IMG/VR virus record: IMGVR_UViG_3300045988_172855
Strand: one strand, 5' to 3'
DNA from: a virus
DNA length: 64,000 nt
In this document: positions 8,587 through 64,000 of the stretch, piece by piece
How the letters are laid out: each line of letters opens with the position of its first letter
Position numbering within the stretch: the first letter of the stretch is position 1
Notes under the pieces: generated by a model
Told to the model about the DNA's origin: nothing
The model's database searches: none
The model's input: only the letters and a program-made list of their open reading frames with translations
Made by a program: the position numbers and the translations under genes

Positions 8587-8603
8587 CTCTTTTATTTTTG
8601 TTG

Positions 8604-8968: not shown

Positions 8969-8971
8969 ATC

Positions 8972-23063: not shown

Positions 23064-23067
23064 CTTC

Positions 23068-23703: not shown

Positions 23704-23707
23704 AACT

Positions 23708-31442: not shown

Positions 31443-32175
31443 TTATTTCTTGTTTTAAAAATTCAACTAATTCTTCGATATTATCAGATACACTATTCGA
31501 TTTCTCAAGATTGTCTTTTGCCCATAGAGGCTGTAAGTTTCTGTAATTGAAACAGATACGTTGGTTTTCCTCTTTTGTCAAATCGAAATAAGAACACGGA
31601 ATGATATGATCAATCTGCCACTTTCCTTCACCTTTTCCTAAATTATCCCACGTCATTCCAGGTTCAAATTGCATCTCGAGATGAGCTTTCAGCTCATCGA
31701 TCGAGCAACCGAGAAGATTGAGAGTGTGATCTGATTTCTGATTGTTTTTAAGTGCTGTCAGAAGTCTACCTCTTAAATTAGAACTAATTTTATAATTTAT
31801 ATCACTAATTCTCTTTTCCTTGTAATATAAAGACGATTTCCCTAAAAGATTTCGTCTTTTTCTAGACTTTTCGTTAGACTTCTTTCCTTTTTCAGATCGT
31901 CTATACTCATCATTTATTTTTCTATAAACAACCTTACCTTTTTCAGAAGTTCGCCATCGTTTATTCCTCTCTCTTCTCAACAACCTTCCTCTTTCGGAAC
32001 TAACATAATTCTTTTTACAATTTTTACATTGACAATCATAACCATCTGAACAACGTTTGTTCATATAAAAATGATCAAGTGACAATTTACATTTACAAAC
32101 TGAACAAACCTTTAATCCCGTCTCACAATCAAATTTCATCTTTATAAACCTGATTATTTTCGTTCGCAAGTACAT
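31426..32175 (-). CDS. free-standing HNH homing endonuclease
   Basis: N-terminal Cys-rich region and basic repeats. C-terminal WQIDHIIPC...NYRNLQPLWAKDN is an HNH motif. It is a paralogue of 63665-64000. An alternative ATG lies at 32139. Confidence 0.75.
   Translation of the reverse strand: MYLRTKIIRFIKMKFDCETGLKVCSVCKCKLSLDHFYMNKRCSDGYDCQCKNCKKNYVSSERGRLLRRERNKRWRTSEKGKVVYRKINDEYRRSEKGKKSNEKSRKRRNLLGKSSLYYKEKRISDINYKISSNLRGRLLTALKNNQKSDHTLNLLGCSIDELKAHLEMQFEPGMTWDNLGKGEGKWQIDHIIPCSYFDLTKEENQRICFNYRNLQPLWAKDNLEKSNSVSDNIEELVEFLKQEINENIC
31641..31755 (-). repeat. 115-bp exact repeat shared by the two HNH genes (copy 1)
   Basis: aattatcccacgtcattccaggttc...gattgtttttaagtgc is identical to 63886-64000. 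The identity is cut by the window end. Flanks are related but diverged. Confidence 0.9.
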
Positions 32176-38736: not shown

Positions 38737-41700
38737 TTAAAACCAATTAGGAAATTGTTGTTTAAATAAATCGTAATAAGCAGCTCCTGTACAACCACTA
38801 AAACAAGCTGTACTATCTTTAACTTGATCTATTTTAATAATATTTTTAAATATCGGAACAGATACTGTAGATATACACAATGGCATTGATAGAGCAATCT
38901 GTGTATTACCTATACCGCTATCAGAAATCCCTGGATAATAGATTATTTTAGAACAGCCTTCAAAAGCACGATCCCAATACAAACAAGTTGTATAAAGACC
39001 ACTTGTAACTGTCACTTTATCACTTCCTATAGTATATCCAAATAAATCATTAATATTTCCTTCGAGATTTGTACAATTATAAAACATTTGTGAAATACGT
39101 ATAATTTTATTCGCATTGTTAGGTGTAACAGATATTCCAACACTTCTCAAGTTTTTACAAAGAGCAAAACATCTTGTATAGTCAGAACAATCTCTACTAG
39201 TAAAGAAATTTGAAGGAATTTGTGTTACACCGCTATTCATAAACGTTTCGACACAAACATCGGCATTAACTAGATTAATCGTTGATATATTCAACAAATT
39301 TGTTGTACCTAAAAATGTTCTAGTGTAATTATTTAATTCAGTAGATGTGATAGAAAATAAATTAGAACCTACACTTGATAACCTACTGCAATTAGCAAAA
39401 GCTAATTCGAAAGTTGCATTTCGAACAGATCCTGAAAATACACTCGAAGGTATTGATGTAATTCCTGATAACTCAGCAAATTTTTTTGCTATAAAAGATC
39501 CACCTGAATAAGCTGAAATCGTACAAGGCGAAGATAAATTACCGCAACCGCTAAACATATCCTCACAACTCGTAATGTTAACAGCATTGATGTTTGCCTG
39601 AATGTTTGATAAATTACTGAGATTAAACATATTAGACACATCGCAACCTCTAGATGAAGGAGATATTGTTCCGGTAACCGAATTTAAATTCTTAGTATTT
39701 TGGAAACAATACGTATAACTCTCGATATTTGATCCACCTAATACGTCATTCAAATTAATAGATCTTGACAAGCCTGAAGATGCATAAGTATATTTATAAT
39801 TTGTTCCAAAAGAAAGACATCCCTTTGGAACGCTTCTCAAAGAAGAACATCCAAAGAAAAAACGTTCAGTTGAACCTGACATCAAACTAGTAGTCCAACC
39901 CGGTATTGATGTTAAATTTCTACATCCATCAAATGCTGATTGAGACCAAGATGTATTCACTTTCGAAGTAAACCATTTCAAAACTCTAATTAAACTTGTT
40001 TTAAAATTCGAACTTAAATCTCCCCATTGTAACGTAGCATTCATTCCGTTAAAATCAAATAAGATTCTGTAAGTTCCTTGTTTGCTGTACGTATGACTTT
40101 TCTCACCTAAAGTTTGACTTCCATCACCCCAACTTACTCTTAGATTATTTATTCCTGTTGATCCTGTATTTTTAATAGGTAGTACAACGCTACTTGTTAA
40201 GACTTCGAGTAATGCACCGTCACCTTCCATAGTAATGAAAATTGTTTTTGTTGTCTCATTAGCACCTACCGAATAACTTCCTCTTTCTGAAAAATAATCA
40301 GGCGAGGTGGCTGTCCAAGAATAAGATGCTGCACAAGGAACGTACCAAGATACTTGTCCATTACTTCCTGTTACACCTGAACTCACATTGTCTTCAACTG
40401 TTACACCTGAAATAGGCATATTATTGGTATCGACAACTCTATATGTAACCTGACAAACATTTCTTTTCAATGTCAAATTAATATAAACATCGTCGTTACT
40501 TATAGAACCCGATCCATTTTGACTTTGATATCCTGGCTTAAACGCCTGCCAATTAAATGAGAATCCTGACAAATAAGGACCAAAATTAGCCTTACCGTCT
40601 CTTGTCGTATACTTCGTTTGACTGTTTAATTGAATAGTTACATTATCGACAGGAGAACCTGAATCGTCTTTTACAGTAAAATAAACTCCGTAATAATCAG
40701 CACCTAAACCAATTTCAAAACTAGGATTCTCTGTATCGACAACAAATGATTCTGATCTAGCTCGATAAGTAGGTTCTTTACTTGCTGTACAAACTAAAGA
40801 ACTACTTGACAACGGCACATTATAAAATGTCGCATTACCACCTCCATCTGTTACACTAGATGAATTGTTAAAAGATACAGATGCGCCTGAAATTGGTAAT
40901 TTATTATTTAAATCATATACATTAATTGTAACTATAGTCGTTTTTCTGACAAAATTCAAAGGTATATTCATTTTGCCATATACTGAAAAACTTTCTGCTA
41001 AATCATAATAATATGCTCCGTATGTAGCTCGATAATTGTAATTACCTTGTTTTAAAGTCACTTTAGCTTCACCGTCAATATTTGTTGTCAATATTTGACC
41101 TGTATCTAAAGTAATTGTCGCTCCTGAAAGAAAATCGAATCCTTCTTTTGCTACAAATGTAACTTCAAATTCGGGCTCAGGTTGTTGAGAGATATAAATA
41201 GTATATCTATTATCATCTCTCTCTTCTATATTAACGTTACCTGAAGTTGAGTAATAATCTTGTTTAGAACAAGTCCATTGCCATATACCAACAACCAAAT
41301 CCCATGTTTCCGCTACACCATTAATGTTGGTGTATTTTGTTTGGCCATTAATCGTTACCGCAGCATTTTCTAGAAGAGCTTGACTTTCTTTATCTTTTAC
41401 AGTTACAGCAAGTTTTCCTCTAGCTTTTTGTAAATCAACTACAATTGCAATAGATTGATTTGTTACAACTGCAGTTCCTGTTTGGATTTGATAATCCTTT
41501 CTACTTATAGTCCAAGGATAATTACCAGGCACTTTATTAAAAGTAGCGTTACCTTTACCATCAGTCGTTAGCGTTTCTTCATCCTCTCCTATCCCTAAAA
41601 CAATAGGTTGATTTGCTACAGGTTGATTATCAATTCTAACAGTAAATACGATATTATAGGTTATCAATTTCATCGTCACCTTAACAGTCTGATTTGCTCC

Positions 41701-44166
41701 GTTCACAATAACGACTCCTTGTCGAATGTAATATCCTTCTTTGTTTACGGTCCAATTATATGAACCTGAAATCCTTACAAATTGAGCAGTCCCTTCTGCT
41801 TGAGTAGTGATTATTTCTGTTCCGATTACAACTTGTGCACCATCAAGAGGTTGATCGTCCTGATCAACAACAGTAAAGTCAATCGTATATCCTATTTGAA
41901 CAAGATTGATTTCTTTAACGACATCTTGATCGACGACCTCTATAGAACCTTCTTGTGCATAAAACTCAGTCTTAGAAACTTTCCAATTATATGTTCCTGC
42001 AATCTCAACAAAATTTGCACGACCATTATTGTCTGTCTGAATAGTAGCTCCATTAAACGTTACATTACACTTAGATACAGGTAACGAATTATTCTTAACC
42101 AGGAACGTTACATTGTACTTAGGAATTGGTTTAAACTGAACATCAATAACTGCATTACCATATATCTCAAAATCGCTTTCAACTGTAATATAACCAGGTT
42201 TAACTACCTTATAATGATATGTTCCTGCAGCTAGTACAAATCCTGTTGCTAATCCTTGCGCGTTTGACGATCCTGTTTGATCGTTTATACTCTCTCCCGT
42301 TACTAATACAGATGCACCTGAAACTGGATCAACACCATCTCTAATTCTAAACGTTACATTATAATAAGGTATAGCTTCCATTTCTACGATTATGTTTGTA
42401 CTGTCAACAATTTCGATAGTTCTTCTAATCGTATAATAATCTTCTAATTCAGCTACATATTGATAAATACCTGGAAATACATCAAACGTCAATATTCCAC
42501 TTGATTGAGTATATTTTGTTTTCCCTGCAAAAGTCAATTTAACATTTGATAAAGGTTCTTTCGTAATTTTATCTCTTACATTAAACGTAACAACCCTTTC
42601 ATAGGCAGCACCTTGTAATTGAATATATTCTACAGCATCTTCTGTTACTAATAGAGAGTTTTGTACTTCTTCGAAATTTTCAGCCTCAACTTTATATAAA
42701 TATTGTCCTCTAGGAAGAATAATTATTGCTTCTCCATTTACATCTGTTTTCAAAGATTGCCCAAATACTGTTATAGTTGCATTTGGAATATATTTATTTC
42801 TATTTGAAAAAACCTTAAATAAGATTCGATAAGACTCTTCTCCTATATATGGACGAATTAATTCGCTGCCAAAAATATTTTTATATCCTATCAAATACTT
42901 TTTCAAGTAATTTTCAAGAGTTTGTTTTCCTTGATATGAATTGTTCTTATAATATGCTGCAATAATATCTCTTTCTCCTAAATAACCTTGAGAAAACGGT
43001 AGATATAACGGTTTTACTTTAAAATCATAAACATATACATAAGGAGTATTTCCACTCGATCTATCTTGGATAAAAATAGGCGCTATATATTTCATAGTAG
43101 GCATTAATGATAATGCTCTACCTGAAGGAAAATTCAAACTTGGTACATCAACGAATTTTTCGTTATTTGACAAAATAAGTCCTCGTATATTATAATAAAT
43201 ACCTTCATTTAAAAGATTTAAAAATTCTGTCGTATGAAACCACATAGAACTTCCTGTGATTTGTCCATTTTCAATAACTCCCATTTCTATAGGATTTCCA
43301 TCTGTAGTTTCATAGCCTGCTACACCAAACTTGAGATTCTGAGTGTCTGTAGCTGCAGATATCTTAACTTGCAAACTAATTTCATAACTCATATTAGGAT
43401 CAACGATAATCAATTTGTCACGATCAACTCGTCCGTCAATACCAACAACTTGATTGCCGAAGAAGGTCATTGCATTAAAGATCTCATCACCTTCATTTTC
43501 ATCTTGCGTTATACTAACACTTTCTGAAACTAGTAGTGGGTAATTACTAAGACTCTCTACTCCTAAAGTATACTCAAATCCTTTCGTTACATTCATCACT
43601 GTATCAGTTCGATCCCATGTAGGTGAGCTATATCCCATTGACCAACCTGTACTTTCGGGTCTTAATAAAGCAAAGATAAATTCATCTACTGAATTATATC
43701 TTATAAGTCTCAGCAATTCTCCTAGAATCTCACCTTCTGTGTTTATAATATCTAATCTTCCTCTTTTGGAATACTCTTCGAGATAATTATAGAACAAATA
43801 CTCCATTTGTTCTTGACTATCAACTAAAGCTGTCACAAGACCTCTGTCCTGAATAAACAGTTCAAACAAAATTCTATTAGAATCGATTTCTTTATATTTT
43901 CGCGCATACAAAACTACGAGTGCGAACATATGTGTTACCGTACCCCAAAATGCCTTAAAATCAGGATTATCTTTTTTATTGATAAAAGTCGGAAGGATAC
44001 CATTTCCTTCCAATTTTGCCAATACATTTTCAGCCCAACCCATTACAGCTTTATCGTTGACTTCAAAAAATCTGCTGAATATGGTATTGTTATATACAGG
44101 AAACTTTGTCGGTTTAAATAAGTCTCCACAAGGATGTTGTTCTTTCGGATCAAGCGCTTTTTCCAT
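38737..44166 (-). CDS. large tail fibre/host-recognition protein: ~90-aa beta-sandwich repeats plus a C-terminal BspA-type leucine-rich-repeat domain
   Basis: About 9-10 repeats of the pattern Y.VTF.V.D...P..GA.V......TD..G.A.F....G.Y.Y.V.K.GY (CarboxypepD_reg-like). The C-terminal ~480 aa carry F.GC.NL.S.P type repeats (FDGCRNLTSIP, FFGCSSLRSVP, FANCSRLSSV). Confidence 0.7.
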   Translation of the reverse strand: MEKALDPKEQHPCGDLFKPTKFPVYNNTIFSRFFEVNDKAVMGWAENVLAKLEGNGILPTFINKKDNPDFKAFWGTVTHMFALVVLYARKYKEIDSNRILFELFIQDRGLVTALVDSQEQMEYLFYNYLEEYSKRGRLDIINTEGEILGELLRLIRYNSVDEFIFALLRPESTGWSMGYSSPTWDRTDTVMNVTKGFEYTLGVESLSNYPLLVSESVSITQDENEGDEIFNAMTFFGNQVVGIDGRVDRDKLIIVDPNMSYEISLQVKISAATDTQNLKFGVAGYETTDGNPIEMGVIENGQITGSSMWFHTTEFLNLLNEGIYYNIRGLILSNNEKFVDVPSLNFPSGRALSLMPTMKYIAPIFIQDRSSGNTPYVYVYDFKVKPLYLPFSQGYLGERDIIAAYYKNNSYQGKQTLENYLKKYLIGYKNIFGSELIRPYIGEESYRILFKVFSNRNKYIPNATITVFGQSLKTDVNGEAIIILPRGQYLYKVEAENFEEVQNSLLVTEDAVEYIQLQGAAYERVVTFNVRDKITKEPLSNVKLTFAGKTKYTQSSGILTFDVFPGIYQYVAELEDYYTIRRTIEIVDSTNIIVEMEAIPYYNVTFRIRDGVDPVSGASVLVTGESINDQTGSSNAQGLATGFVLAAGTYHYKVVKPGYITVESDFEIYGNAVIDVQFKPIPKYNVTFLVKNNSLPVSKCNVTFNGATIQTDNNGRANFVEIAGTYNWKVSKTEFYAQEGSIEVVDQDVVKEINLVQIGYTIDFTVVDQDDQPLDGAQVVIGTEIITTQAEGTAQFVRISGSYNWTVNKEGYYIRQGVVIVNGANQTVKVTMKLITYNIVFTVRIDNQPVANQPIVLGIGEDEETLTTDGKGNATFNKVPGNYPWTISRKDYQIQTGTAVVTNQSIAIVVDLQKARGKLAVTVKDKESQALLENAAVTINGQTKYTNINGVAETWDLVVGIWQWTCSKQDYYSTSGNVNIEERDDNRYTIYISQQPEPEFEVTFVAKEGFDFLSGATITLDTGQILTTNIDGEAKVTLKQGNYNYRATYGAYYYDLAESFSVYGKMNIPLNFVRKTTIVTINVYDLNNKLPISGASVSFNNSSSVTDGGGNATFYNVPLSSSSLVCTASKEPTYRARSESFVVDTENPSFEIGLGADYYGVYFTVKDDSGSPVDNVTIQLNSQTKYTTRDGKANFGPYLSGFSFNWQAFKPGYQSQNGSGSISNDDVYINLTLKRNVCQVTYRVVDTNNMPISGVTVEDNVSSGVTGSNGQVSWYVPCAASYSWTATSPDYFSERGSYSVGANETTKTIFITMEGDGALLEVLTSSVVLPIKNTGSTGINNLRVSWGDGSQTLGEKSHTYSKQGTYRILFDFNGMNATLQWGDLSSNFKTSLIRVLKWFTSKVNTSWSQSAFDGCRNLTSIPGWTTSLMSGSTERFFFGCSSLRSVPKGCLSFGTNYKYTYASSGLSRSINLNDVLGGSNIESYTYCFQNTKNLNSVTGTISPSSRGCDVSNMFNLSNLSNIQANINAVNITSCEDMFSGCGNLSSPCTISAYSGGSFIAKKFAELSGITSIPSSVFSGSVRNATFELAFANCSRLSSVGSNLFSITSTELNNYTRTFLGTTNLLNISTINLVNADVCVETFMNSGVTQIPSNFFTSRDCSDYTRCFALCKNLRSVGISVTPNNANKIIRISQMFYNCTNLEGNINDLFGYTIGSDKVTVTSGLYTTCLYWDRAFEGCSKIIYYPGISDSGIGNTQIALSMPLCISTVSVPIFKNIIKIDQVKDSTACFSGCTGAAYYDLFKQQFPNWF

Positions 44167-44185
44167 TTTACATTCTTTTAATGCA

Positions 44186-44216
44186 TAAAAATACCAAACA
44201 ATTTTATATCTACAAA
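44186..44216 (-). promoter_or_regulatory. promoter-like TTTG-N19-TATTTTTA element for the 1809-aa fibre gene
   Basis: Minus strand TTTG-TAGATATAAAATTGTTTGG-TATTTTTA, 19 nt upstream of ATG 44166 and 20 nt outside the left inverted repeat. Confidence 0.4.
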
Positions 44217-44220
44217 CAAA

Positions 44221-45696
44221 TTGCTTATTAATTCACAATCAATCACGCTCTATGCCCTCTACATAAGCTCATCAGGGTGGTTTGCTCCTGTGACGAGTAA
44301 GTCGATAGATGTAGAAAATATAAATAATTATTATACAGGTTTACAAGGTAAAGATAAATTAAAAGAAGGTACTTCTTCGTTTGGATATTATTTTGATAAT
44401 CATATCGATTATCGAGGTAATAGTCAACCCATGTTTAGTGTTGCAGATTTTGGTAGAAGTGGTATATCAATTAATTTGGGTTTTTATTATATTAATGAGT
44501 ATAATGAAATTATTTCAGATAGAAGTGAGCAATTTCATGCCAATTCTAACAAAGTTATTTTAAGAGGAAAATTATTGGTAGCTTCCAATCAAATTAACAG
44601 TATGGTTGCTGCTATAGGTTGTGTTTCGAGCTCTGATAATCAATTTTCAAGATCTATTTGGATGGTTTATAAGGGAACGGGTTATAAAGTACGGAGAACT
44701 ACGAACTTTTCCAGTTCTACTAATTTATTAAAAGCGTACAGTAGTTACACTTTACAAAATGCGATATATTGGGGACAATGGAAAGGTAGTGATAATTATA
44801 TAGGAAGTTATTCAGCTAATCCCTTAGGACATTCACTAACAGTTGGGTACATATTATCAGATCCCAATTATGGTACTAGCGGAGAAGTTGATATATCGTT
44901 AGGTGGTATAGTTGTAAATTTTCTCAAGGCGATATTAATAGAAACTGAAACAGTAACGAGTGGAACTGTAGGAATATATGCTAAAATCGTTCTTTTAGGC
45001 ATCCATGATGATCGTAGTAAAACATTGTATTACGTGAAAATACGGTGTTATAATTCAGGTAGTGTATCGTACATTCAAAAAGTAGGTGATATAGTTTCTT
45101 ATAAATCAGTCAACCGTCCAATGGGAGCTAATTTATGGTTTACGACTGATAGAAAATGGATGTTTTTTCCACCTTCAGGTGATAGTTTTTATCCTAAAGG
45201 AATAAACTCATATTATGCTAATGGTCAACAATTGATAGTAGATGGTTCAACTTCTATGCCTGATGATGTTAGTTATCTGAATTCATCTCACACATCTGCA
45301 ATGAGATCTGCTTTGCAAAATGTATACGTATTAGAGATTTTGTTTAACAAGACTCAAACTAAAATGATTGTATTAACAAATACAACTGGAGCTGCATTTG
45401 AAATTGGAGATTTTGAAGGTAATTACAATCCTGATGCTATGTATTGTTTTCAATTGGTAAATAATTCTTGGGTACAAATTTCAACTCAAGCTATAGATAG
45501 ACAAAATGTTTTAGCTTCGTATAATTCAACTGGAAATCAAGGTATCAAGTATAAATCAAGTCTTTCTCTTTGTGATAAATCAAATGATCTCGGTTCATTA
45601 GCTATGTTTGGTAGTCAATATAGTTTTAACTGGGCATTTCCTGCAAATAGCAAACCGACTGTATTTTATACATCAAAAATAACGTGGGGTGAATGA
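44221..45696 (+). CDS. silent alternative C-terminal cassette of the giant tail fibre (no ATG start; paralogue of the region encoded by 45715-47097)
   Basis: The only long plus-strand ORF not nested in a minus-strand gene. The frame opens after TAA at 44179-44181 with no ATG before IR-L (the track start is TTG). The C-terminal ~190 aa align with the giant fibre tail (YPKGINSYY, SYLNSSHTSAMRSALQNVYV.EI.FNKT..KMIVLTN). Confidence 0.7.
   Translation: MLINSQSITLYALYISSSGWFAPVTSKSIDVENINNYYTGLQGKDKLKEGTSSFGYYFDNHIDYRGNSQPMFSVADFGRSGISINLGFYYINEYNEIISDRSEQFHANSNKVILRGKLLVASNQINSMVAAIGCVSSSDNQFSRSIWMVYKGTGYKVRRTTNFSSSTNLLKAYSSYTLQNAIYWGQWKGSDNYIGSYSANPLGHSLTVGYILSDPNYGTSGEVDISLGGIVVNFLKAILIETETVTSGTVGIYAKIVLLGIHDDRSKTLYYVKIRCYNSGSVSYIQKVGDIVSYKSVNRPMGANLWFTTDRKWMFFPPSGDSFYPKGINSYYANGQQLIVDGSTSMPDDVSYLNSSHTSAMRSALQNVYVLEILFNKTQTKMIVLTNTTGAAFEIGDFEGNYNPDAMYCFQLVNNSWVQISTQAIDRQNVLASYNSTGNQGIKYKSSLSLCDKSNDLGSLAMFGSQYSFNWAFPANSKPTVFYTSKITWGE
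44236..44301. repeat. 66-bp perfect inverted repeat, left arm (IR-L)
   Basis: caatcaatcacgctctatgccctctacataagctcatcagggtggtttgctcctgtgacgagtaag is the exact reverse complement of 47032-47097. It encodes QSITLYALYISSSGWFAPVTSK in frame in both ORFs. Confidence 0.95.
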
Positions 45697-45706
45697 TTCA
45701 CCCCAC
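45684..45706. terminator. bidirectional intrinsic terminator between the two convergent fibre cassettes
   Basis: Stem gtggggtgaa/ttcaccccac with loop tga (the plus-ORF stop codon). T-runs follow on both strands (ttctttt on plus, GTTATTTTT on minus). Confidence 0.65.
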
Positions 45707-45711
45707 TTCTT

Positions 45712-48700
45712 TTACCATATTGTATTTGTATAAGATATATAATAATCCACATTATAAGCAGGTTTACCCCAAGAAAGAGTCCAATTACCGTCATTATCCT
45801 GTAATAATAACGAAGGTCTTTTTAAAGAGTCGCTTTCGTTATAAGAATTCCACAAATTAACTCTATCGACAATAGAAGAAACGTTTATCCATGATGCCGT
45901 ATTTGCTTGATAAACAAATGCAAACATTCTATCAGGATTATGAGAATCTCCGTCGAATGTAAAACTATTTGTAACAGCAAATGAACCTGAAACACTATTC
46001 GTCAATACGATCATTTTATCAGACGTCTTATTGAAGATAATTTCCTGTACATAAACATTTGATAATGCACTTCTAATTGCAGATGTATGAGATGTATTGA
46101 GGTAAGAAGCGTTATTTTCAATGTAATTTGTAACATTGCTTGTTATAAATTCTTTGTTACCATAATAGGAATTTAATCCTTTTGGATAAGCAATAGATGT
46201 ATTTTGAGATTTAGGAACAAAAAATATCCATTTTGTATCAAAACTAACCCAAATATTGGGTCCGAGATTTTGATTAAAAACATGATTTGAAGGAGTTTCG
46301 TAAAATGAAGATAAAGAACCTAAATGTCCACTACTATTGACATTGAAATTACCCGTAACAATTTCAAAAATATAAGAATCATTGCCTCTTAATATCAAAA
46401 GTGCTTTTTTATCAGCGAATCCTATCAATTTTATACCATAATAATCACTTGAAATATTGTCAGGAAGTACGTGAGCATTTGTAGAACATGATCCTGATAG
46501 CAATGCTACAGTATTTTCCCTTATTGCTCTTGATTCAAATGCTTTAGAGAGAACTAAACAATAGTCTGAATGATAAATATGACAAAATGCATGAGTACTT
46601 GTGTAAGTATTAAATACTCTTTTTATTGATCTTATACTTGTATCTCCGAATGATCTTGCTGATCGACCTTCGTTTACTCCTCTATATGTAATCGTATTCA
46701 CATAATAAACACTGTTTGCATGCCATGTAAAATGTTTAAATATATTCACACTATAACCATCAGATCCCTTTGAACTATAAATGCATCTTGTTTTAGAAAC
46801 CTGTGATGTTGTAAATTGCGAATAATTCCTAGTATTGCCGCCATCGGACGGATAAAAATATGTATCTATTGAAGAACTTGCATTTGAAACACTAGCTAAA
46901 AATAAACTAGAATTAACGCCAGGTGTATATGGGAAAAAGGCACAACAACTACTAGTATTTGCATTTTCCCTGCTATATCGATTATTATCTGATATACCGG
47001 TATATACTGTTCTAATAGCCCTAGCTACTTTCTTACTCGTCACAGGAGCAAACCACCCTGATGAGCTTATGTAGAGGGCATAGAGCGTGATTGATTGATC
47101 AGAGATGAAAGAAACTGCCGACCCGCTTCGATTAGGAACGGGGAAATTATTTGTTCCAGTTCCTCCCCAAGCAGTCGATCCCCCTGCTTCAGTCCAGTAA
47201 TTACCCGGTCTGATTTTTAAAACCAATTGACCACTTGCGTTAGTTGTTCCACTATAATTTACTGCACTATTATTATTTGACAGTTTTACGATACAACTTG
47301 CAGCAACCAATGATGTATTATCACTTCTCTTTACATTGATAGTTAAATTCATTTCAGAAGGTACTAATTTCAATGTAAAATTAGTTGTGTTCGCGTTAGT
47401 TGTGTTCAGTATATCGTATCTTGATGCACTAATGATATATCTATTAGTTAATCCTGAAACATATACAGTCGTTTGTCCATTTGAATTTGTAGTTAAATTC
47501 TGTGCTGATGCTGACGTAGCGTTACTACCATCTATACCATATACAGTAACAGTTGCTCCGCTAACATTTGCATTTGTCAAACTATTCTGAACCGTTAATG
47601 TTAAAGCCTTAATAGCTGTAAAATATTTTATTCCCGTTACATTGCTAAAATTATATGTAGGAGTGACATTATACATCGTATGAGTTGTCGTTGTACCTGT
47701 TACGAAATAAGCATTTGAAGCTCCCATTGTCGTATTCAAACCAGCTATAAACGTATAATTTGCAATAACATAATTTGAATTATGATCAATTCCTAATGTT
47801 ACAGTGGTAGCTACACCTGCAGTTGTATAAACCGGTTTAAATAAATTTACACCACCTGCTTTTAAATAAAAATCTCTTGATCCTTGAGTAGGTACTCTGA
47901 AATACCATATCAAAATAACATTCTTAGTCAATCGAACAGCACTTTTTTGAATAGAAGCTGTTGGCATTGTAATATCTACAGACTGCGCTCCCCAATAAGA
48001 AGTTCCTCCACCCCAACTCAAAGTATAAGTTCCTTGAATCATCGGACCAAACGAAACTTGACCGGAAGAGTTGGTGTTGCCACTAAATGTAATTGACGTC
48101 TTGTTTTTATTAGTGAGTTTTACAGGACAACCATTTGCATTTCCTTTATCTGCACCTTGATAATTATCTTTAATTGTTATTGTAATCGAAGAAGAAGTTT
48201 CACTTAAAGTTACATTCCAAGGAGAGGCTTGAGTAGCTGGAATCGATCCTGATGCTGTGTTATACAAACTCTTAGAAAAGCTGTAACTATAATTAGGAGT
48301 TCGTCCTCCTCTATAAACCGTAGCGTTACCACTACCATCTGTAGTTACAGTTTGTCCAAATAATGTTGCACTTACGCCACTTATATTCCATCCATAATTA
48401 GAACTCTTCACATTTGCAACGAATTGCGTTTTAGACGTCATTGTCATTGTCCACGATTCACCTTCTCTTGTCCAAACGTGAGTTTGCGTTCCGTTACTAT
48501 AATATCCGGCGTTAGCTTTTGGAGTGTAAGAGTACGTCAATCCTGCATAAACTGTATTTGATTTTCTACCACTTCCATCTAATGTTAACTCAGTTACAGC
48601 TCCTAATACAGTTCTATTTACAATTGAATTTAAAAATGCCCCTGTATAAGTTCCTAACTTTTCCATTACAGTTAGTGTTACTGTAACAGTTGTTCTCGTA

Positions 48701-51700
48701 AATGTTATATTATAAGGAGTAGATTGTCCGTGAGTTACAGTTCCGATGTAAGCATTAAAATAAGTTGCACTACCATTAATAGGTTTGTCTAAACCACTTC
48801 GATAAAATACTGCATTACCACTTCCATCTGTAGTCTTCGTCTGATTAAAATATGTCAATGAAGCTCCGCTAATATTTGTATTAGCAGGTACATTGCTCTT
48901 AACATTTACAGTTATTTGAGCAGAACATGCCAAAGACATATTAAACGTTTGATTAGCTGATGTATAAGTATAACTTTGACTAGGATTACTATAATAATTT
49001 GAATGATCAACTACCGCAAAAGTTGTTGGAATACCAAGATATGTTGTTACTGTAGTTGCACCATTTATATCCAATGTAATTTTAGAAGAACTTCCATTCT
49101 TCGTCATTGTTAATGATTTAGATGCATAAACGTTTGTTCCAGCTATATTCGGAATAGTTTCTACGACCTTTATTGATACAGTCGCTTGATTTCGACTCAT
49201 TACAATATTAAAAGGAGAAGTATTCGAAGGAGTAATTGTTCCACTATAATTTGCATGATATGTAACTGTCGAAGTTATCGATTTATCCAAACCACTTCGA
49301 TAAAATACTACGTTCCCATCCGCACCTGTCGTTTTCGTCTGATTAAAATATGTAACAGATGCGTTAGATAGATTAGCTGAAGGAGCATTACTCTTAACAT
49401 TTACAGTTATTTGAGCAGAACATGTAAGTGTCATATTCCAATTCTCATTGACTGTATTAAACGTATGTACTTGAGTTGAATTATTATAAAAATTAGCATT
49501 ATCTACAACAGTAAATGTCATTTCTGTCCCCAAATAACCGTTGAAAGTTGCGTTTCCTGAAGAGTCAAGAGTTAAAGTTCCCTTTGCACTGCCTGCAGAC
49601 CAATTTATTTTTTTAGAAGCGTAATTCCAGGTTCCTGTTACTCCTGGAATAGATTCTACAACATGAATTTTTACCGGATTGGCTGCACGAGTCAAAATTA
49701 CCTTTATAGGAGAGACCTGATCACTTGTAATTAAACCTGAATAAGATTCTAGAAAATCTGCTGATACAGATATATTCCGATTCAATCCACTTCGATAAAA
49801 TGTCGCATTTCCATCTGTATTCGTCGTCTTAGTTTGATTGAAGTATGTAACAGATGCGTTAGGTAAAGGTTCTCCAGCTGGAACATTAGCTTCTACATGA
49901 ACAACTAAAGTTGTAGAACACGTTAAGATCATTGTCCACGATTCACCTATTGTAGCAAACGTGTGACTTTGACTAGAATTACTGTAATAATTAGGATGGT
50001 CGATTACTGCAAAAGTTGTCGGAATCCCTAAATAACATTTAAATGATATTGCACCATCATCATTTAATGTCAACGTTCCGTTCCCGGCTGCATTCGTATA
50101 CGTGATCTGCTTGTTTGCATAATTTAAATTACCTTCAATGTTAGGAATCGCTTCTTTAACATTAATCGTTACTGACTGCAACTCTCTAAACAATTTGATT
50201 GCTATAGGAGATGAGTTTGTTGCTTCGATATTTCCGGTAGTTGTTCTATAATCATCTTTTGTTACAGAATAATCTTTTGTTAAAGCTGATCGATAAAATA
50301 CTGCATTACCACTACTATCTGTGGTTTTTGTTTGTAAATTATATTGTATATTTGCACCAGAGATATTAACGTTTGAATAAGTATCTTTAACGTTTAATGT
50401 AATCTGTGCAGTTACATTCAAATTCATATTCCATACAAAACCATCTTCTGTCCACGTATACGACTGCGTAGGATTGGAATAAAAATTCGCATAATCATCG
50501 ACTGTAAATGTATATTCTAATCCTTTGATCAATGTCATAACTGCAGTACCATTTTCGTCAAGGCTTATGGTAATTTCACCTGCCTTTGAATTCATCGTCA
50601 AAGTTTTATTTGACAATGCAGCAAATACTGAACTTGATCCGTATAGCTCTCGAACCTCAATCTGAGCATTAATTAACTCATATTGAACCTCTACTTCGAG
50701 TTCTGTTCCTGCTTCTGTTTGCGGATGATCAAAAACTCCTGTCGTAACTTCACCAGCTAATACAGAATATTGATATGTACCCGTCAAAACATTCGGAATA
50801 TTAGCTACACCATCGATATCTGTCGTTCCTTCGTAAACTAAAGATTCGTCTTTAGTATTCGTGATTCGCACTATTATATTTTCAGGAGGCAAAATTCCAC
50901 CAGTAGAAACTGTAAATTTTACCGGATAGCTTTTTGCTTCTAAAGTAAATTCTAATTTCGTTTCTTGTCCTGTTGGCGTTAGCGATCCTGTAAGATCGTT
51001 GTAATATTGTTTTCGGATTGTATAATTCATTGACACAGGAGACAAATAAATATAAGCAATACCTGCATTATTCGTCTCTTGTATTTGATCAACTGACATT
51101 CCTGTAAACGTAACTTGCGCTCTTTCTAAATCTCCATATAAATCACTTGAAACGTGAACAGGAATTCGTTTAGAACATGTATAAGTTAGAGTTATGTTTT
51201 GAGTTGCTCCATTAGAATAATCTAAAGTAAACGGATCTCCTTCTCCTTCGTAAAAACCAACCGGTTGAATCGCAAATCGCTCAGGTAATCCAGCGTAAAC
51301 CGTTTTTGTTACCTGTCCATTTGCATTTGTAGTTAGATTGCTTCCTGAAGAAGTATTTTTTTCAACATAAAACGGTGACAAAACCAATCCCGCTTTTACA
51401 GGATTAGCTGTCGAAGAAATTAACGGAAGAATTTCTTTAATGGTTGCAGTTACAGAAATCGTTCTTCTTACTGCAACCATTTCAACAGGATTATCTAAAG
51501 GAAGATAAATATCTTTAGTTGCAATATCGTAATTATTATTTGCACTACCAATTGTAATTCTATATTCTCCTGGCGGGATATTGAATTGTCCGTTTCCTGA
51601 CGAATTAAAATCTCCATTATCGTCTGTTGTACCTGTAAAAGTGTATTGTTGAGAAGTTGTTCCTCCCCACAAACTAGTTACACTTACAGAACAGTTGTTT

Positions 51701-54700
51701 GCAGAATGTTCGTAAGGAACAGTTGTTAAAACGGATAATTCGAAATTAATTTGACTATACTGAAAAATCAAATCCAAATAATTATTCTGTAAAGGCGGTG
51801 TAAATCGACCACTTAATACTGTATGATCTGCTACTTTTGCAGAATAATTCATTGTTACGGGAGAAATATATATACGAGCAATTCCATTTTCATTTGTAAT
51901 AACAGTTTGATCTAAACTCATTCCCGTCACTGAAACGTCTGCATCAGAAAGCGGTCTCAAAGTATTTGCTTGTTTCGCTCTTAACTCAAGTTGTTTTGAT
52001 GCAATAATTCCCATTTCAACAGTAGGATTGTTTATAAAATCCCAAGTTGAAATAAATAATCCATCGTTTTCATAAAATCCTGATTCAGCTACCGTCAATT
52101 CGTATTGAACTCCTGGCATTACAACGACATTGACTATTCCATTTGAATTCGTTGTATATTGTTTAACTGTATTATCGCGAGTACTCTTGACGTTAATCTT
52201 TAAACCTTCCTTTACAGGCAAGTAATTAATTGATCTCTTTTGATCAACTTGAATACTAGCTGTTATTTGATTGTCACCTGTAGTAACTGTTACATCAATT
52301 GCTGCACTTCTCGGTGTCACATCTCTTGTTTCAGGATTTACTTCTACAGTTGCTTGTGAGCCGTCAAGTGTAATGAATGTCTCAGCCGGAACGGTATTGT
52401 AATTTAATCTAGCTCCTCCATAAATAAAATCGTATGGCTCATCTACTCCACCTTCTTTTAATCTTCGAAAAGTTCTAACATAATCATTTAAATCAAATTC
52501 AGCACCTGAATTAGGAATTATAAGGTTTGTAGGAACATTTGCTATATAAATATATTCGTCTGTACCGGCGACTTCAATTGTATTAGAACCTGATGACCTT
52601 ACTGTAGTCGCATCACCACTTAAATTAGGAATATTTTCTGTAACGAGAACGCTGTTAGTGATCTCCTTTCTTTTCATAATAAAAGGAACTTCTTGATCTT
52701 TTAATTTCTCAAGAGTAATATTACTTGTTACAGGAAGATAGAAATTATGTGTTGCTCTCCAAGAATAATTACCTGCCTCTGCTGCCAAATCGAGAACACC
52801 GATAGCATTAGTCGTACCACTATCTACAATTAAACCAGTTCCAACATTCGTCAACTCAATCAAAACATCTTTAATCGGATTACCTGTTAGCTCATCTGTT
52901 GCTGTATATGTAATTACAGTATCTCTCAGTTCAATATAGACTGTTAATACGACATCCTGATCTTTGATTTCAACTTCACCTGTATATTTTTTATAATTTC
53001 TCGCATTAATAATAAATGTATATGTCCCGTTTCCTAATGTAATATTGGCTACACCATTCACATTCGTAACCGTAGTTATATCTTCACAAACAACTTCTGC
53101 ACCTTGAATATAGTTACCATTTTCAATGTCTCTGACAATCAATCTGAATGTATAAAATGCTTTTTCCAAAGAAATTATCTTCGAAATCGGTGCATCTTCG
53201 ACAACGAGAAAATCTGAATAAGACATGTATCCGCTCTTAAATACAGTATATTCAAACGTTCCATTTGGTAAACTAATAATAGCAACACCTTGATCGTCAG
53301 CAAGATAAGTACTATCGTTTATCTTAATTGTTGCACCGGATATAGGTCTTCCATATTCAGCATCAAGAATTGTAAATTTCACCTCATAAGGAATAGCAAC
53401 CATTTCTATAACAACACAATTAGGATCTTCACCTTGAACAACGATATTTTTTTTGTATTGTTGATATCCCTCTTTATCGACTTTTACTTCGTACTCACCA
53501 ACTTGAAGACCTAATTCAGCTTGTCCTTCTATATCTGTCAATTTACTTTGATCGATAACCTGAATATTTGCTTCAGGAACATATACACTACGCTCTCTAT
53601 CGACTACAGCAAAGTAAACCGGTAAAGTCTCTAAAAACATTCTTTCTATAATCTCAACCGGTTGATTCTCGATAGTGAGAATACTTTCTATCGTCTTAAA
53701 TCCAGCTTTAGAAATTGTATATGTATAAGTTCCTGGCTCTAATTGAATTGAAGCTTGACCTTCGTTATTCGTAAGTAAATTAGATGTACTAATTTGAATA
53801 GACGCTTCGGCTAAAGGAGCATTACCTTCGTAAACTGTAAATGATACCAAATACGGAGTTGCTGTAAAATCGTTTATAGTAATATAAATCGGTCCATTCA
53901 AAACAACAAATTCTCCTGTTTTTTGATCCCAATTTGCTTTATTTAAAGTATATTGATATTCACCATTTTCCAATAACACATTTGCTGTTCCGTTAGCATC
54001 TGTAGCAATAACTTTATTACCGATTGTAATATATGCATTTGGAACAGGAGTGTTCTTTGTATTTGTTACTGTAAATGATACAAGATATTTCTGCGACGCA
54101 ATTGTTGTTTGAGAACCTTTATAAATATCAGATTCTCCTGCTGGATAAAAAATGTTAGATAGATTTGATCCTGAATCATAAAGAATATTTCCTTCAAGAT
54201 CTCTCATTCTAAATCCTTTGATTCTTGGTAACATATTCAAAGGAACTTCTTCATCGTAATATGGGAAAAAATATTCATCAGGAACATACTTCACACCTTC
54301 TGAACTTTTAACTACTTGCAACAAATCGTCCCACTGAACAGTTTTTCCTGCATCCCAAAAACGGAAATCGAGATATTTAGTCATTGCAATTTGAATATTC
54401 TTTCTTACTGTTGCAATATCTGTATCAGAAGAAAGTTCAACTCTAAAATCAACACCATTATTCCCGCCTACAAACATCCATTTGGCGTTCTCTAATACTA
54501 CACCAACCGCTTCACCTTGTAAATTTAATTCGGTTAATCCAAAATAAGGAGTTGCCTTTTGTAATAATGTTTCTAATTCATCATCGGTAAAAAAAGATCC
54601 GTTTTGAGTAACAAGATAGATGTGTGTTTTACCATCTTCTCCTAAACCGACATTCATCACCTTCAATATTCTTGGGTCTAAATCTTGAAAAATCTGAGTC

Positions 54701-55302
54701 CAAGATTCCATTGTCTCTTCAGACAATTTATTATTGTAATTAATGATTCGATTTCTAAATGTTACATCGTCTTCGTAATCACGACCACCAATCGCAGCGT
54801 ATTCGTTGATACATTCGATATGAGTCAATGGACGAGGACTGACTTGTACGATACTATTTGCCTCTACATTTGTTGCTGAGCCTGTTATAGTACTTCTTAC
54901 ACTAACGTAACCGTATCCTGAATTATCAACAGTATAAGGTTTATCTACAACAAAACGTATACCATTTTTTGCTAAAAAAGTTGTTCCAACTTCATATTGA
55001 GTTCCAGGTTCAGCAGAAACTCTAACATAAGTAGATGATCCTAACGCCTGCTTTCTAGGACTTACTCCATACAATGCAGCGGCTTTATCTAAATATTCCC
55101 CTGTTGCTGAAGTAGGAAATATCTGTGCTTCTACAATCGCAATATCTTTAATAGCTTTTTGAGCTACTTTAGCTGTACCAAAAGCCATTGCGTTTAAAAC
55201 TGACCCGTCTGCAATATTAGAGACTTTGTCAGTTTTATTCAAAAACATTTCAACCCATAAATTTTTTAAGTTTGAAATTGTATTATTTACTTTTGTAATC
55301 AT
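45712..55302 (-). CDS. giant (3196 aa) baseplate-J-like / tail-fibre fusion protein
   Basis: The N-terminal ~390 aa are baseplate J/gp6-like (AAIGGRDYEDDVTFRNRI, compare GG.D.E.D..LR.R). These are followed by many ~90-aa beta-sandwich repeats, five 165-aa tandem units, and a C-terminal domain after the IR-encoded 22 aa (aa 2736-2757). Confidence 0.75.
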   Translation of the reverse strand: MITKVNNTISNLKNLWVEMFLNKTDKVSNIADGSVLNAMAFGTAKVAQKAIKDIAIVEAQIFPTSATGEYLDKAAALYGVSPRKQALGSSTYVRVSAEPGTQYEVGTTFLAKNGIRFVVDKPYTVDNSGYGYVSVRSTITGSATNVEANSIVQVSPRPLTHIECINEYAAIGGRDYEDDVTFRNRIINYNNKLSEETMESWTQIFQDLDPRILKVMNVGLGEDGKTHIYLVTQNGSFFTDDELETLLQKATPYFGLTELNLQGEAVGVVLENAKWMFVGGNNGVDFRVELSSDTDIATVRKNIQIAMTKYLDFRFWDAGKTVQWDDLLQVVKSSEGVKYVPDEYFFPYYDEEVPLNMLPRIKGFRMRDLEGNILYDSGSNLSNIFYPAGESDIYKGSQTTIASQKYLVSFTVTNTKNTPVPNAYITIGNKVIATDANGTANVLLENGEYQYTLNKANWDQKTGEFVVLNGPIYITINDFTATPYLVSFTVYEGNAPLAEASIQISTSNLLTNNEGQASIQLEPGTYTYTISKAGFKTIESILTIENQPVEIIERMFLETLPVYFAVVDRERSVYVPEANIQVIDQSKLTDIEGQAELGLQVGEYEVKVDKEGYQQYKKNIVVQGEDPNCVVIEMVAIPYEVKFTILDAEYGRPISGATIKINDSTYLADDQGVAIISLPNGTFEYTVFKSGYMSYSDFLVVEDAPISKIISLEKAFYTFRLIVRDIENGNYIQGAEVVCEDITTVTNVNGVANITLGNGTYTFIINARNYKKYTGEVEIKDQDVVLTVYIELRDTVITYTATDELTGNPIKDVLIELTNVGTGLIVDSGTTNAIGVLDLAAEAGNYSWRATHNFYLPVTSNITLEKLKDQEVPFIMKRKEITNSVLVTENIPNLSGDATTVRSSGSNTIEVAGTDEYIYIANVPTNLIIPNSGAEFDLNDYVRTFRRLKEGGVDEPYDFIYGGARLNYNTVPAETFITLDGSQATVEVNPETRDVTPRSAAIDVTVTTGDNQITASIQVDQKRSINYLPVKEGLKINVKSTRDNTVKQYTTNSNGIVNVVVMPGVQYELTVAESGFYENDGLFISTWDFINNPTVEMGIIASKQLELRAKQANTLRPLSDADVSVTGMSLDQTVITNENGIARIYISPVTMNYSAKVADHTVLSGRFTPPLQNNYLDLIFQYSQINFELSVLTTVPYEHSANNCSVSVTSLWGGTTSQQYTFTGTTDDNGDFNSSGNGQFNIPPGEYRITIGSANNNYDIATKDIYLPLDNPVEMVAVRRTISVTATIKEILPLISSTANPVKAGLVLSPFYVEKNTSSGSNLTTNANGQVTKTVYAGLPERFAIQPVGFYEGEGDPFTLDYSNGATQNITLTYTCSKRIPVHVSSDLYGDLERAQVTFTGMSVDQIQETNNAGIAYIYLSPVSMNYTIRKQYYNDLTGSLTPTGQETKLEFTLEAKSYPVKFTVSTGGILPPENIIVRITNTKDESLVYEGTTDIDGVANIPNVLTGTYQYSVLAGEVTTGVFDHPQTEAGTELEVEVQYELINAQIEVRELYGSSSVFAALSNKTLTMNSKAGEITISLDENGTAVMTLIKGLEYTFTVDDYANFYSNPTQSYTWTEDGFVWNMNLNVTAQITLNVKDTYSNVNISGANIQYNLQTKTTDSSGNAVFYRSALTKDYSVTKDDYRTTTGNIEATNSSPIAIKLFRELQSVTINVKEAIPNIEGNLNYANKQITYTNAAGNGTLTLNDDGAISFKCYLGIPTTFAVIDHPNYYSNSSQSHTFATIGESWTMILTCSTTLVVHVEANVPAGEPLPNASVTYFNQTKTTNTDGNATFYRSGLNRNISVSADFLESYSGLITSDQVSPIKVILTRAANPVKIHVVESIPGVTGTWNYASKKINWSAGSAKGTLTLDSSGNATFNGYLGTEMTFTVVDNANFYNNSTQVHTFNTVNENWNMTLTCSAQITVNVKSNAPSANLSNASVTYFNQTKTTGADGNVVFYRSGLDKSITSTVTYHANYSGTITPSNTSPFNIVMSRNQATVSIKVVETIPNIAGTNVYASKSLTMTKNGSSSKITLDINGATTVTTYLGIPTTFAVVDHSNYYSNPSQSYTYTSANQTFNMSLACSAQITVNVKSNVPANTNISGASLTYFNQTKTTDGSGNAVFYRSGLDKPINGSATYFNAYIGTVTHGQSTPYNITFTRTTVTVTLTVMEKLGTYTGAFLNSIVNRTVLGAVTELTLDGSGRKSNTVYAGLTYSYTPKANAGYYSNGTQTHVWTREGESWTMTMTSKTQFVANVKSSNYGWNISGVSATLFGQTVTTDGSGNATVYRGGRTPNYSYSFSKSLYNTASGSIPATQASPWNVTLSETSSSITITIKDNYQGADKGNANGCPVKLTNKNKTSITFSGNTNSSGQVSFGPMIQGTYTLSWGGGTSYWGAQSVDITMPTASIQKSAVRLTKNVILIWYFRVPTQGSRDFYLKAGGVNLFKPVYTTAGVATTVTLGIDHNSNYVIANYTFIAGLNTTMGASNAYFVTGTTTTHTMYNVTPTYNFSNVTGIKYFTAIKALTLTVQNSLTNANVSGATVTVYGIDGSNATSASAQNLTTNSNGQTTVYVSGLTNRYIISASRYDILNTTNANTTNFTLKLVPSEMNLTINVKRSDNTSLVAASCIVKLSNNNSAVNYSGTTNASGQLVLKIRPGNYWTEAGGSTAWGGTGTNNFPVPNRSGSAVSFISDQSITLYALYISSSGWFAPVTSKKVARAIRTVYTGISDNNRYSRENANTSSCCAFFPYTPGVNSSLFLASVSNASSSIDTYFYPSDGGNTRNYSQFTTSQVSKTRCIYSSKGSDGYSVNIFKHFTWHANSVYYVNTITYRGVNEGRSARSFGDTSIRSIKRVFNTYTSTHAFCHIYHSDYCLVLSKAFESRAIRENTVALLSGSCSTNAHVLPDNISSDYYGIKLIGFADKKALLILRGNDSYIFEIVTGNFNVNSSGHLGSLSSFYETPSNHVFNQNLGPNIWVSFDTKWIFFVPKSQNTSIAYPKGLNSYYGNKEFITSNVTNYIENNASYLNTSHTSAIRSALSNVYVQEIIFNKTSDKMIVLTNSVSGSFAVTNSFTFDGDSHNPDRMFAFVYQANTASWINVSSIVDRVNLWNSYNESDSLKRPSLLLQDNDGNWTLSWGKPAYNVDYYISYTNTIW
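47032..47097. repeat. 66-bp perfect inverted repeat, right arm (IR-R)
   Basis: Exact reverse complement of 44236-44301. It starts at a codon boundary (codon 2736) of the giant fibre gene. Confidence 0.95.
48200..50660 (-). repeat. in-frame tandem repeat array, about 5 units of 495 bp (165 aa), within the giant fibre gene
   Basis: For example, the 32-mer cttaacatttacagttatttgagcagaacatg occurs at 48898-48929 and 49393-49424 (offset 495). Protein units repeat ...YLG..TTFAV.D..NYYSN..Q.HTF...W.M.L.CS.QITVNVKSN...ASVTYFNQTKTT..GNA.FYRSGL. Confidence 0.8.
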
Positions 55303-63664: not shown

Positions 63665-64000
63665 CTAACTTTCTTTTAGATTAACAACCATATCAATACT
63701 TAAATCTTCTTTGATAACTTTTAACAATTCTTCCCATCCGTCAGGTAGAGAATCTCTTTTTGCATTATTTTCCTTTGCCCACATAGGCTGAAGATTTCGA
63801 TAATTGAAGCAGATACGTTGGTTCTCAGGAATAGATAGATCGAATTTTGCACACGGTATAATATGATCGATATGCCATCTACCACAATTATCCCACGTCA
63901 TTCCAGGTTCAAATTGCATCTCGAGATGAGCTTTCAGCTCATCGATCGAGCAACCGAGAAGATTGAGAGTGTGATCTGATTTCTGATTGTTTTTAAGTGC
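63665..64000 (-). CDS. free-standing HNH homing endonuclease (C-terminal part; the N-terminus lies beyond the window end)
   Basis: HIDHIIPC...NYRNLQPMWAKENN HNH motif. The frame stays open to nt 64000, and the last 115 nt are identical to 31641-31755, so the true start is off-window rather than the track Met at 63919. Confidence 0.7.
   Translation of the reverse strand, partial: ALKNNQKSDHTLNLLGCSIDELKAHLEMQFEPGMTWDNCGRWHIDHIIPCAKFDLSIPENQRICFNYRNLQPMWAKENNAKRDSLPDGWEELLKVIKEDLSIDMVVNLKES

Follow-up and report, generated by a model that had tools for sequence, protein, structure and literature searches.

The 64,000-nucleotide stretch of viral DNA analysed here (IMG/VR record IMGVR_UViG_3300045988_172855, hereafter the window) has a content of 30-37% G+C and carries almost all of its genes on the minus strand. 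The locus which concerns us is the end of a giant tail-fibre gene, where two alternative fibre tips are encoded in opposite directions between the arms of an inverted repeat. The repeat is perfect: positions 44236-44301 are the exact reverse complement of 47032-47097 over 66 nucleotides (nt; 100% identity) with a spacing of 2730 nt, and a search of the window allowing up to three mismatches returned no copies of the 66-mer beyond the two arms, with 0 matches expected in shuffled sequences. Both arms are in frame and each encodes QSITLYALYISSSGWFAPVTSK. By arithmetic on the gene coordinates, the right arm (minus strand, on the expressed side) corresponds to codons 2736-2757 of a fibre gene of 3196 amino acids (aa) on the minus strand (45712-55302), which runs on for 439 codons beyond it, while the left arm (plus strand, on the silent side) supplies the 22 codons that head a frame of the opposite strand running on for 464 codons. 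The segment enclosed by the arms (44302-47031, 2730 bp) thus contains the expressed cassette A, which is the present C-terminus of the fibre (45712-47031, minus strand; 439 codons and a stop, ending ...YTNTIW), and the silent cassette B (44302-45696, plus strand; 464 codons and a stop, ending ...ITWGE). Between both stop codons there is a hairpin at 45684-45706, with a 10-bp stem including 6 G-C pairs and T-runs on both strands, which is predicted to be a two-way intrinsic terminator for whichever cassette is expressed.

The plus-strand frame (open reading frame (ORF) 44221-45696) has no start of the usual kind. It opens past a TAA at 44179-44181 and its first ATG does not come before about codon 84, the sole start-like codon near its head being a TTG at 44221, 5 codons ahead of the arm. 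The TAA which closes this frame lies in a non-coding flank (44167-44235) that extends from the ATG of the next gene to the left arm. The frame is the only non-nested one among the plus-strand ORFs of at least 100 aa, and the change of sign in the GC skew of the window is confined to 44-46 kb. An earlier note, made from the letters of the sequence alone, had described the 66-bp inverted repeat, the in-frame arms with their common 22-aa product, the position of the right arm within the fibre gene, the solitary start-less ORF and the bidirectional terminator, and each of these was recovered here at the same coordinates.

The constant part of the fibre (codons 1-2735; 47098-55302, minus strand) begins with a wedge domain that matches Baseplate_J (Pfam, E 4.7e-16) and the baseplate wedge family phrog_6 (E 1.9e-28), and past this domain it is made up of many CarboxypepD_reg immunoglobulin (Ig)-like repeats (E 1.4e-41). 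Upstream of the fibre gene the tail module encodes a protein that weakly matches a baseplate family (phrog_975, E 3e-4), another that resembles tail-tube initiators and one of 896 aa which, judged by eye, may be the tape measure. Downstream, beside the silent arm, the gene at 38737-44166 (minus strand) encodes a second giant Ig-repeat protein of 1809 aa with CarboxypepD_reg, Big_1 and weak DUF285 matches, which may be a second, non-switching fibre. The product of this gene has the same length in all relatives of the window's clade, and the 3 kb by the arm are 95-96% identical in their DNA.

The homology of the two tails near their C-termini and their proximal divergence, both pointed out earlier, were confirmed by alignment, which gave 45% identity across the last ~150 aa (E 3e-35) and no significant similarity between the proximal ~250 aa of the two. 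No Pfam or PHROGs family was matched in the cassettes, and no cultured relative was found when their DNA and protein were searched against 50,697 GenBank phage records; the DNA search gave one match, to an unannotated faecal contig fragment, and the search with the tail protein gave none. AlphaFold modelling of the expressed cassette A from 12 sequences reached a confidence (predicted local distance difference test, pLDDT) of 34, and a run with 24 sequences gave a predicted template modelling (TM) score of 0.71 with residues ~200-439 at pLDDT 70-95. Foldseek matches to this model were all beta-propellers (a Photorhabdus lectin, GH74 and a sialidase), at E values of about 1e-4 and TM scores of 0.2-0.3, and because these matches are weak the propeller fold can be taken only as a hint that the modelled fibre tip is a carbohydrate-binding beta-propeller. 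The tips are presumably receptor-binding, and are possibly beta-propeller or lectin-like.

Relatives were collected from IMG/VR, from metagenomes scanned with a 23-mer that is conserved in the arm and from contigs with stand-alone copies of a cassette. The exact 66-mer had no match in IMG/VR; a conserved 32-mer and then the 23-mer did retrieve relatives. A word-indexed protein search with the cassette profile brought nothing new, whereas an exhaustive profile search returned 18 representative clusters, nearly all of them "orphan" ORFs of 477-498 aa, and the loci of these 18 clusters led to 40 more contigs of ~100-108 kb. The same architecture is shared by 36 of the 40, with arms of 39-87 nt that have 0-1 mismatch and are about 3.0 kb apart; at the other four loci no repeat was returned. 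In total the layout is kept in 46 genomes which form three clades, identical arms being found at the junction of the window's left arm in the 45 related genomes. The earlier note had proposed a search for this arrangement of repeats and cassettes in relatives, and both orientations are present among them. The silent copy is always headed by the last 22-26 codons of the body and never has an ATG near its head.

The window's clade has two classes of cassette, A (ending ...NTIW) and B (ending ...TWGE), and each genome carries one of each. It is the A-class that continues the body in the window and in the relatives numbered L001, L003, L016, L017, L018 and L019, and in L004, L013 and L027 it is the B-class that is fused to the body while the A-class lies by the conserved non-coding flank. 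A silent A-class copy is also present in L020. The flank sequence by the left arm is kept in all clade-1 relatives and always adjoins the silent cassette, whichever type this is. In L013 and L027 the fibre body ends in the cassette type that is silent in the window, and in L004 it ends in the sister of that type. When pairs of genomes were oriented by their flanks before the segments were compared, L013 and L016 proved to be collinear in the flanks (98.6%) and reversed over the segment including the arms (97.1%), and the control pair L013/L027 had the same orientation. Among clade-3 genomes the reversed pairs included L059/L070 (99.8%, distal flank 99.9%), L076/L077 (98.9%, distal flank 100%), L051/L054 (99.2%), L059/L065 (99.1%) and L055/L060 (99.0%). 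In all, at least eight independent pairs of close genomes have the segment in opposite orientations, some being 99-99.8% identical, and the breakpoints lie within the arms. It had been suggested that inversion would splice the alternative tail onto the same fibre body; relatives do carry both fusions, and the pairs differ by a clean inversion. It should be noted that one further ORF (P0008), which was not placed on a contig, starts inside an arm and is 87% identical to the expressed cassette A of the window. As the start of this ORF lies within the arm, it should occupy the silent position in another genome.

Arm length is 65-87 nt overall, much above that of the core sites of recombinases, and 65-72 nt in clade 1. 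As a rule identical within a genome, the arms differ between genomes at 7 sites in clade 1 and at 20 sites in clade 3, synonymous sites included, and the single-nucleotide polymorphisms (SNPs) shared by the two arms of a genome include synonymous ones. The mean number of differences between the arms of one genome was 0.11 in clade 1 and 0.73 in clade 3, as against 2.56 and 4.00 between genomes, and none of 10000 permutations reached the observed values. This concerted evolution of the arms within genomes agrees with the earlier reading of ongoing recombination, not an old duplication, and requires gene conversion over the full length of the arm. Within each clade the arms have a constant outer edge, and the inner edge varies, giving arms of 65, 66 or 72 nt and of 78, 80, 81, 86 or 87 nt; in genomes of the L013 type, conversion has given the A-class cassette the same two initial codons as the B-class one (TCGATA). 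In all three clades the arms are situated at homologous codons of the last body domain (...NRS...DQSIT...GW...) with shifted boundaries, and between clades their DNA identity is, by eye, only about 55-60% with no common core visible.

Clustering at 80% identity divided the cassettes of the 46 genomes into 22 types, which are combined in many different pairs. Seventeen of the types recur, and 13 of these 17 have both expressed and silent representatives. The cassettes are mosaic, in that some agree at 94% in their distal parts and at 54-59% in their proximal parts, and in the window's clade the segment is 75-87% identical as compared to 95-99% for the flanks. Although silent, 45 of the 46 silent cassettes have kept an uninterrupted frame of 458 codons or more in genomes that are AT-rich. 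The ratio of nonsynonymous to synonymous substitution (dN/dS) in the window's clade was 0.29-0.55 for B cassettes that are silent in both genomes, one near-identical pair apart, and the expressed A cassettes fell into the same range. In the window's clade, where this was measured, the silent copies are thus under purifying selection, and since they are kept intact and are constrained like the expressed ones it follows that they are used.

The sole broken silent cassette of the 46 is that of L078 (5296-8306), in which the frame closes after 78 codons and the arm has a private SNP. In clade 3 (L045-L084) the body end, over the 1.4 kb upstream of the body-side arm, is 74-86% identical between genomes, as opposed to up to 99.8% in the invertible segment and 92-100% in the downstream gene. 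By this measure the distal part of the body, which is rich in repeats, forms a second zone of variability or mosaicism, and the arm marks a boundary of recombination between genomes. There is in addition an inner inverted repeat at the YPKGLNSYY motif of both cassettes, which is 27 nt long and 100% identical in L004 (10916-10942 / 11903-11929) and L027 (10898-10924 / 11883-11909), 96% identical in L013 and L016, and 76% identical in the window (45124-45168 / 46219-46263). A crossover at this repeat would exchange the distal ~165 aa alone; no chimera of an A-class proximal part and a B-class distal part occurs in the window's clade, but the mosaic cassettes with near-identical distal and very different proximal parts mentioned above do exist.

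Fibre genes with invertible ends usually come with an invertase, and a gene of this kind was searched for in several ways. No Resolvase or Phage_integrase domain was found by Pfam in the tested ORFs of the window, no recombinase domain was present among precomputed Pfam hits in the 10 kb beyond each end of the window on near-identical contigs, and for the ~25 kb of genome then left a relative was used, in which none of the ORFs tested (~120 aa or longer) had such a domain. Searching 2.87 Mb of related DNA by tblastn with Hin, Gin and XerD gave nothing. There is no serine recombinase gene (Resolvase, PF00239) beside the segment, the neighbours of which are the fibre body and the 1809-aa Ig-repeat protein. 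The core consensus of the gix, cix and hix sites is AAACC-NN-GGTTT; with one mismatch allowed, such a core was found only at 2098 and 13552, which is the chance frequency, and none is in or near the arms, so that a gix-type site was discarded. Neither cassette half contains a fibre-assembly (chaperone) gene of the U/U' type, each being a single ORF that reaches to the shared terminator. A shufflon was also rejected, as neither an adjacent tyrosine recombinase (no Phage_integrase match) nor three or more segments with short repeats were found, each locus having one strong pair of inverted repeats only. The same holds for a diversity-generating retroelement, the common diversifier of fibres in gut phages, which would have a reverse transcriptase and a template/variable repeat pair with adenine-specific mismatches: Pfam scans of the window found no reverse transcriptase domain, and the repeat, which is perfect, is in inverted orientation and precedes the variable region.

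What the window does contain is a block of homologous-recombination genes (8972-13465, minus strand) which may provide the machinery of inversion. On the minus strand it encodes a Holliday-junction resolvase (8972-9460; phrog_1770, E 5e-27), an SbcC/Rad50-like ATPase (9457-11463; AAA_23/SMC_N), a RecA of the bacterial type (11445-12431; PF00154, E 3e-74) and an SbcD/Mre11-like phosphoesterase (12431-13465; Metallophos, E 1.8e-9).

Taken together, the locus is a real and conserved invertible switch of the fibre tip. The explanation which we hold with moderate confidence is that of a two-slot switch of the distal ~440-465 residues of a giant baseplate-anchored fibre, which is inverted most probably by homologous recombination. 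In this scheme one cassette is made in frame with the 2757-codon constant part while the other faces it over the shared two-way terminator and is silent, having neither a start codon nor a promoter of its own and being headed by the last 22 codons of the body. A crossover between the 66-bp arms would invert the 2730-bp segment, joining the silent cassette to the body and silencing the one formerly expressed, and lysates would then hold virions with either of the two fibre tips. The RecA, SbcCD-like and resolvase genes of the phage itself would drive homologous recombination and gene conversion between the arms during replication, with crossovers giving inversion and non-crossovers giving conversion. 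The long perfect arms, their homogenisation, the sliding inner boundary and the exchange of cassettes between genomes at the arms make homologous recombination the most economical mechanism, and we infer that it is most probably this, and not a site-specific invertase of the Gin/Cin type, which turns the segment. What the analysis shows directly is the anatomy, the two orientations among close relatives, the intact silent cassettes, with purifying selection in the window's clade, and the concerted evolution of the arms; that RecA-type recombination is the enzyme system, that 66 bp of homology allow flipping at a useful rate within one population and that flipping changes the host range is inference.

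Several observations weigh against this explanation and lend themselves to others. The receptor-binding role on which a change of host range would depend is suggested by the position of the tips, by their hypervariability and by fold matches that are weak (TM 0.2-0.3). As regards the enzyme, the same switch might depend on a site-specific recombinase with its crossover site in the arms. Such an enzyme could come from the phage, as a protein not recognised for what it is, or from the host (Bacteroidales), as an invertase acting in trans. Mpi of B. fragilis is a host invertase that acts in trans. Precedent is on the side of such an enzyme, because every characterised phage fibre switch has an invertase of its own, a serine recombinase in the case of Gin, Cin, Min and the Pin of e14 and a tyrosine recombinase in that of Rin, and because Bacteroides has trans-acting global invertases (PMC6109161). 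The constant outer edge of the arms in each clade, together with the narrow range of their length, could reflect a defined protein-binding site, and the arm of clade 1 holds a short dyad, TCAtCAGG-N10-CCTGtGA; moreover, many ORFs of the phage have no recognisable family and some short ones were not scanned, the negative result covering the tested ORFs. We nevertheless consider a site-specific recombinase less likely, as no Resolvase or Phage_integrase match was obtained in any ORF examined and none lies beside the segment, the arms lack a gix/hix-like core, and both their sequence and their internal dyads differ among the three clades. Concerted evolution over 65-87 nt and a variable inner edge would in any case need gene conversion.

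The remaining alternatives question whether there is a working switch at all. The silent cassette could be a spare paralogue which undergoes rare accidental exchange on evolutionary time scales, the orientation being effectively fixed in each population. Orientation does differ only between assemblies from different samples or contigs and never within one, a few genomes have 4-7 mismatches between their arms, and the silent cassette of L078 is truncated. That at least eight independent close pairs are found in opposite orientations, some of them 99-99.8% identical, speaks against this, as do the 13 of 17 recurrent cassette types occurring in both states, the 45 of 46 silent copies that are intact and, in the clade where selection was measured, constrained just as strongly as expressed ones, and arms which stay identical in three clades whose arm sequences have diverged; a spare paralogue accordingly seems improbable to us. 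We regard it as highly improbable that the orientations are choices of the assembler at the repeat, or that the plus-strand ORF is an independent gene translated from its own TTG. Where an inverted repeat exceeds the assembly k-mer in length, a de Bruijn graph does leave the orientation ambiguous, the k-mers of some assemblies were maybe shorter than the arms, so that orientation there depends on the threading of reads and pairs, and the contigs named k119 or k141 that cover the locus are all in one orientation. One contig, L002, ends inside an arm. As signs of a mixed population, the ends of L002 and L020, which both fall at or near arms, are uninformative because the k-mer size of the assembly is not known. 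Arms of 65-87 nt are, however, shorter than typical reads, which therefore constrain the orientation, and the arguments from selection and from the arms are independent of assembly, as are the conservation of the cassettes, the homogenisation of the arms and the shared terminator. Gene callers do call the plus-strand ORF, from TTG or GTG, but the same cassette type is seen as the in-frame end of fibre genes of more than 3200 aa, and a silent copy without an ATG near its head, which begins with exactly the last 22-26 codons of the body, is not what would be expected of an independent gene.

Other genes of the window include a DnaE-type DNA polymerase III alpha subunit which is split into two overlapping ORFs (16419-21315, minus strand). 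The first (19690-21315) carries the PHP domain and the start of the NTPase domain and the second (16419-19703) the remainder, with the break just ahead of the catalytic PDIDTDF motif; the second also has an insertion with a LAGLIDADG match which is intein-like (CIWGEE...ILAHN|C). Genes at 377-1294 and 22542-25146 are, by eye only, likely to belong to DNA modification with 7-deazaguanine of the queuosine/archaeosine type, and comprise GTP cyclohydrolase I-like, QueE-like, QueD-like and MazG-like proteins and a second QueD-like protein fused to a kinase-like ATPase, of which the AAA_18 part was checked. This block suggests a modified genome. Two HNH-type endonuclease paralogues at 31426-32175 and 63665-63919 share, by eye, the motifs FEPGMTWDN...IDHIIPC...NLQP(L/M)WAK(D/E)N and may be homing endonucleases, the former matching phrog_1035 "endonuclease VII". 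A GIY-YIG gene was found in one relative only (L021).

The phage family to which the window belongs has genomes of ~105 kb and is found in the human gut, all samples with a named source being human gut or faecal. Its portal protein has 153 relatives in IMG/VR, and one protein of the window was found in 312 assembly-index blocks. The nearest cultured relatives by terminase are phages of B. thetaiotaomicron, at 37% identity. In the relative L085 the gene just upstream of that for the portal (8497-9981, outside the window) codes for 494 aa, which include an fn3 domain and three BACON domains; BACON is a kind of carbohydrate-binding module known from crAssphage and from Bacteroidales. The Bacteroidota host held probable by the earlier note is plausible, with the terminase, the BACON protein of a relative and the origin of the samples giving it weak support. 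As no integrase was found, the phage appears to be virulent.

The promoters of capsule and surface-protein genes are inverted in gut Bacteroidales as a means of evading phages, and for one widespread family the locus offers a concrete and testable answer to how their virulent phages keep up, namely a built-in fibre tip with two states. More tentatively, we propose a programmed switch without a recombinase in a large, prevalent and apparently virulent family of ~105-kb gut phages, in which a 65-87-bp piece of the fibre gene, maintained as two inverted copies, would be homogenised by RecA-type recombination of the phage itself, would give two receptor specificities per burst and would serve as docking points for the exchange of cassettes between co-infecting genomes, drawing on a library of at least 22 tips. 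If this is true, the two slots of each genome are filled from a population-wide library, and the system is the phage counterpart of the phase-variable capsules of Bacteroidales. The present data also suggest that invertible receptor-binding cassettes need no dedicated invertase, in which case screens for an invertase gene beside inverted repeats would miss them. Host-range prediction and the design of phage therapy would, for such phages, have to weigh both cassettes, and the arms would lend themselves to the exchange of engineered tips.

Systematic surveys of gene-altering inversions have covered bacterial genomes and prophages (PMC9881135), and a 2026 paper which calls putative invertons on gut viral genomes a first report does not include the present locus (PMC13501310). 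Full-text literature searches returned no description of a switch in this phage family. The closest anatomical parallels are the G segment of Mu, inverted by Gin, and the C segment of P1 and P7, inverted by Cin, in which the repeats likewise lie inside a fibre gene with a constant N-terminal part and two opposed variable C-terminal parts, a single cassette is expressed at a time and the outcome is bet-hedging on host range. Mu and P1, however, have a serine invertase beside the segment, 26-bp gix/cix sites, a Fis-dependent enhancer and U/U' fibre-assembly genes within the segment, whereas in the present phages neither an invertase nor such sites were found, each cassette is a single ORF and the arms are 65-87 nt long, perfect and homogenised. 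The logic of Mu G and P1 C invoked by the earlier note thus holds for the anatomy, and in the absence of an invertase, a gix/cix-like site or a tail-fibre chaperone gene the enzymology is probably different.

Exchange of C-terminal receptor-binding modules in frame with a constant N-terminus is also seen in the shufflons, such as those of Min in p15B, Rci in R64 and Rin in Bifidobacterium prophages, the last of which places module-swapping systems in human-gut phages (PMC6109161). Shufflons have at least three segments, short crossover sites of 11-31 bp and an adjacent recombinase gene, in contrast to the one pair of long arms, the two slots per genome and the lack of a recombinase gene found here, where at least 22 types are spread across the population. 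In the sap locus of Campylobacter fetus, inversion is largely RecA-dependent and takes place between the conserved 5' regions of homologues of the S-layer gene. As in our phages, the silent cassettes of sap share a conserved N-terminal coding stretch as homology, there is no dedicated invertase, and inversion brings another cassette to a single expression site; an identical stretch under concerted evolution, which marks a homology switch of this type, is what we found in the arms. The sap system is bacterial, uses homology of about 600 bp and moves a segment that bears the promoter, whereas in the window the homology is 66 bp within a structural gene of a phage and the expression site is the fibre body. 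Finally, the genome isomers of Anabaena cyanophages differ in having inverted repeats of 400-700 nt around a block of ~30 kb of whole genes, with no gene splicing and no exchange of fibre tips. They resemble the present phages in that a conserved segment bounded by inverted repeats occurs in both orientations among close relatives and the sequence of the repeats varies between phages, and their authors weigh homologous recombination as an alternative to a recombinase (bioRxiv 10.64898/2026.02.14.705889).

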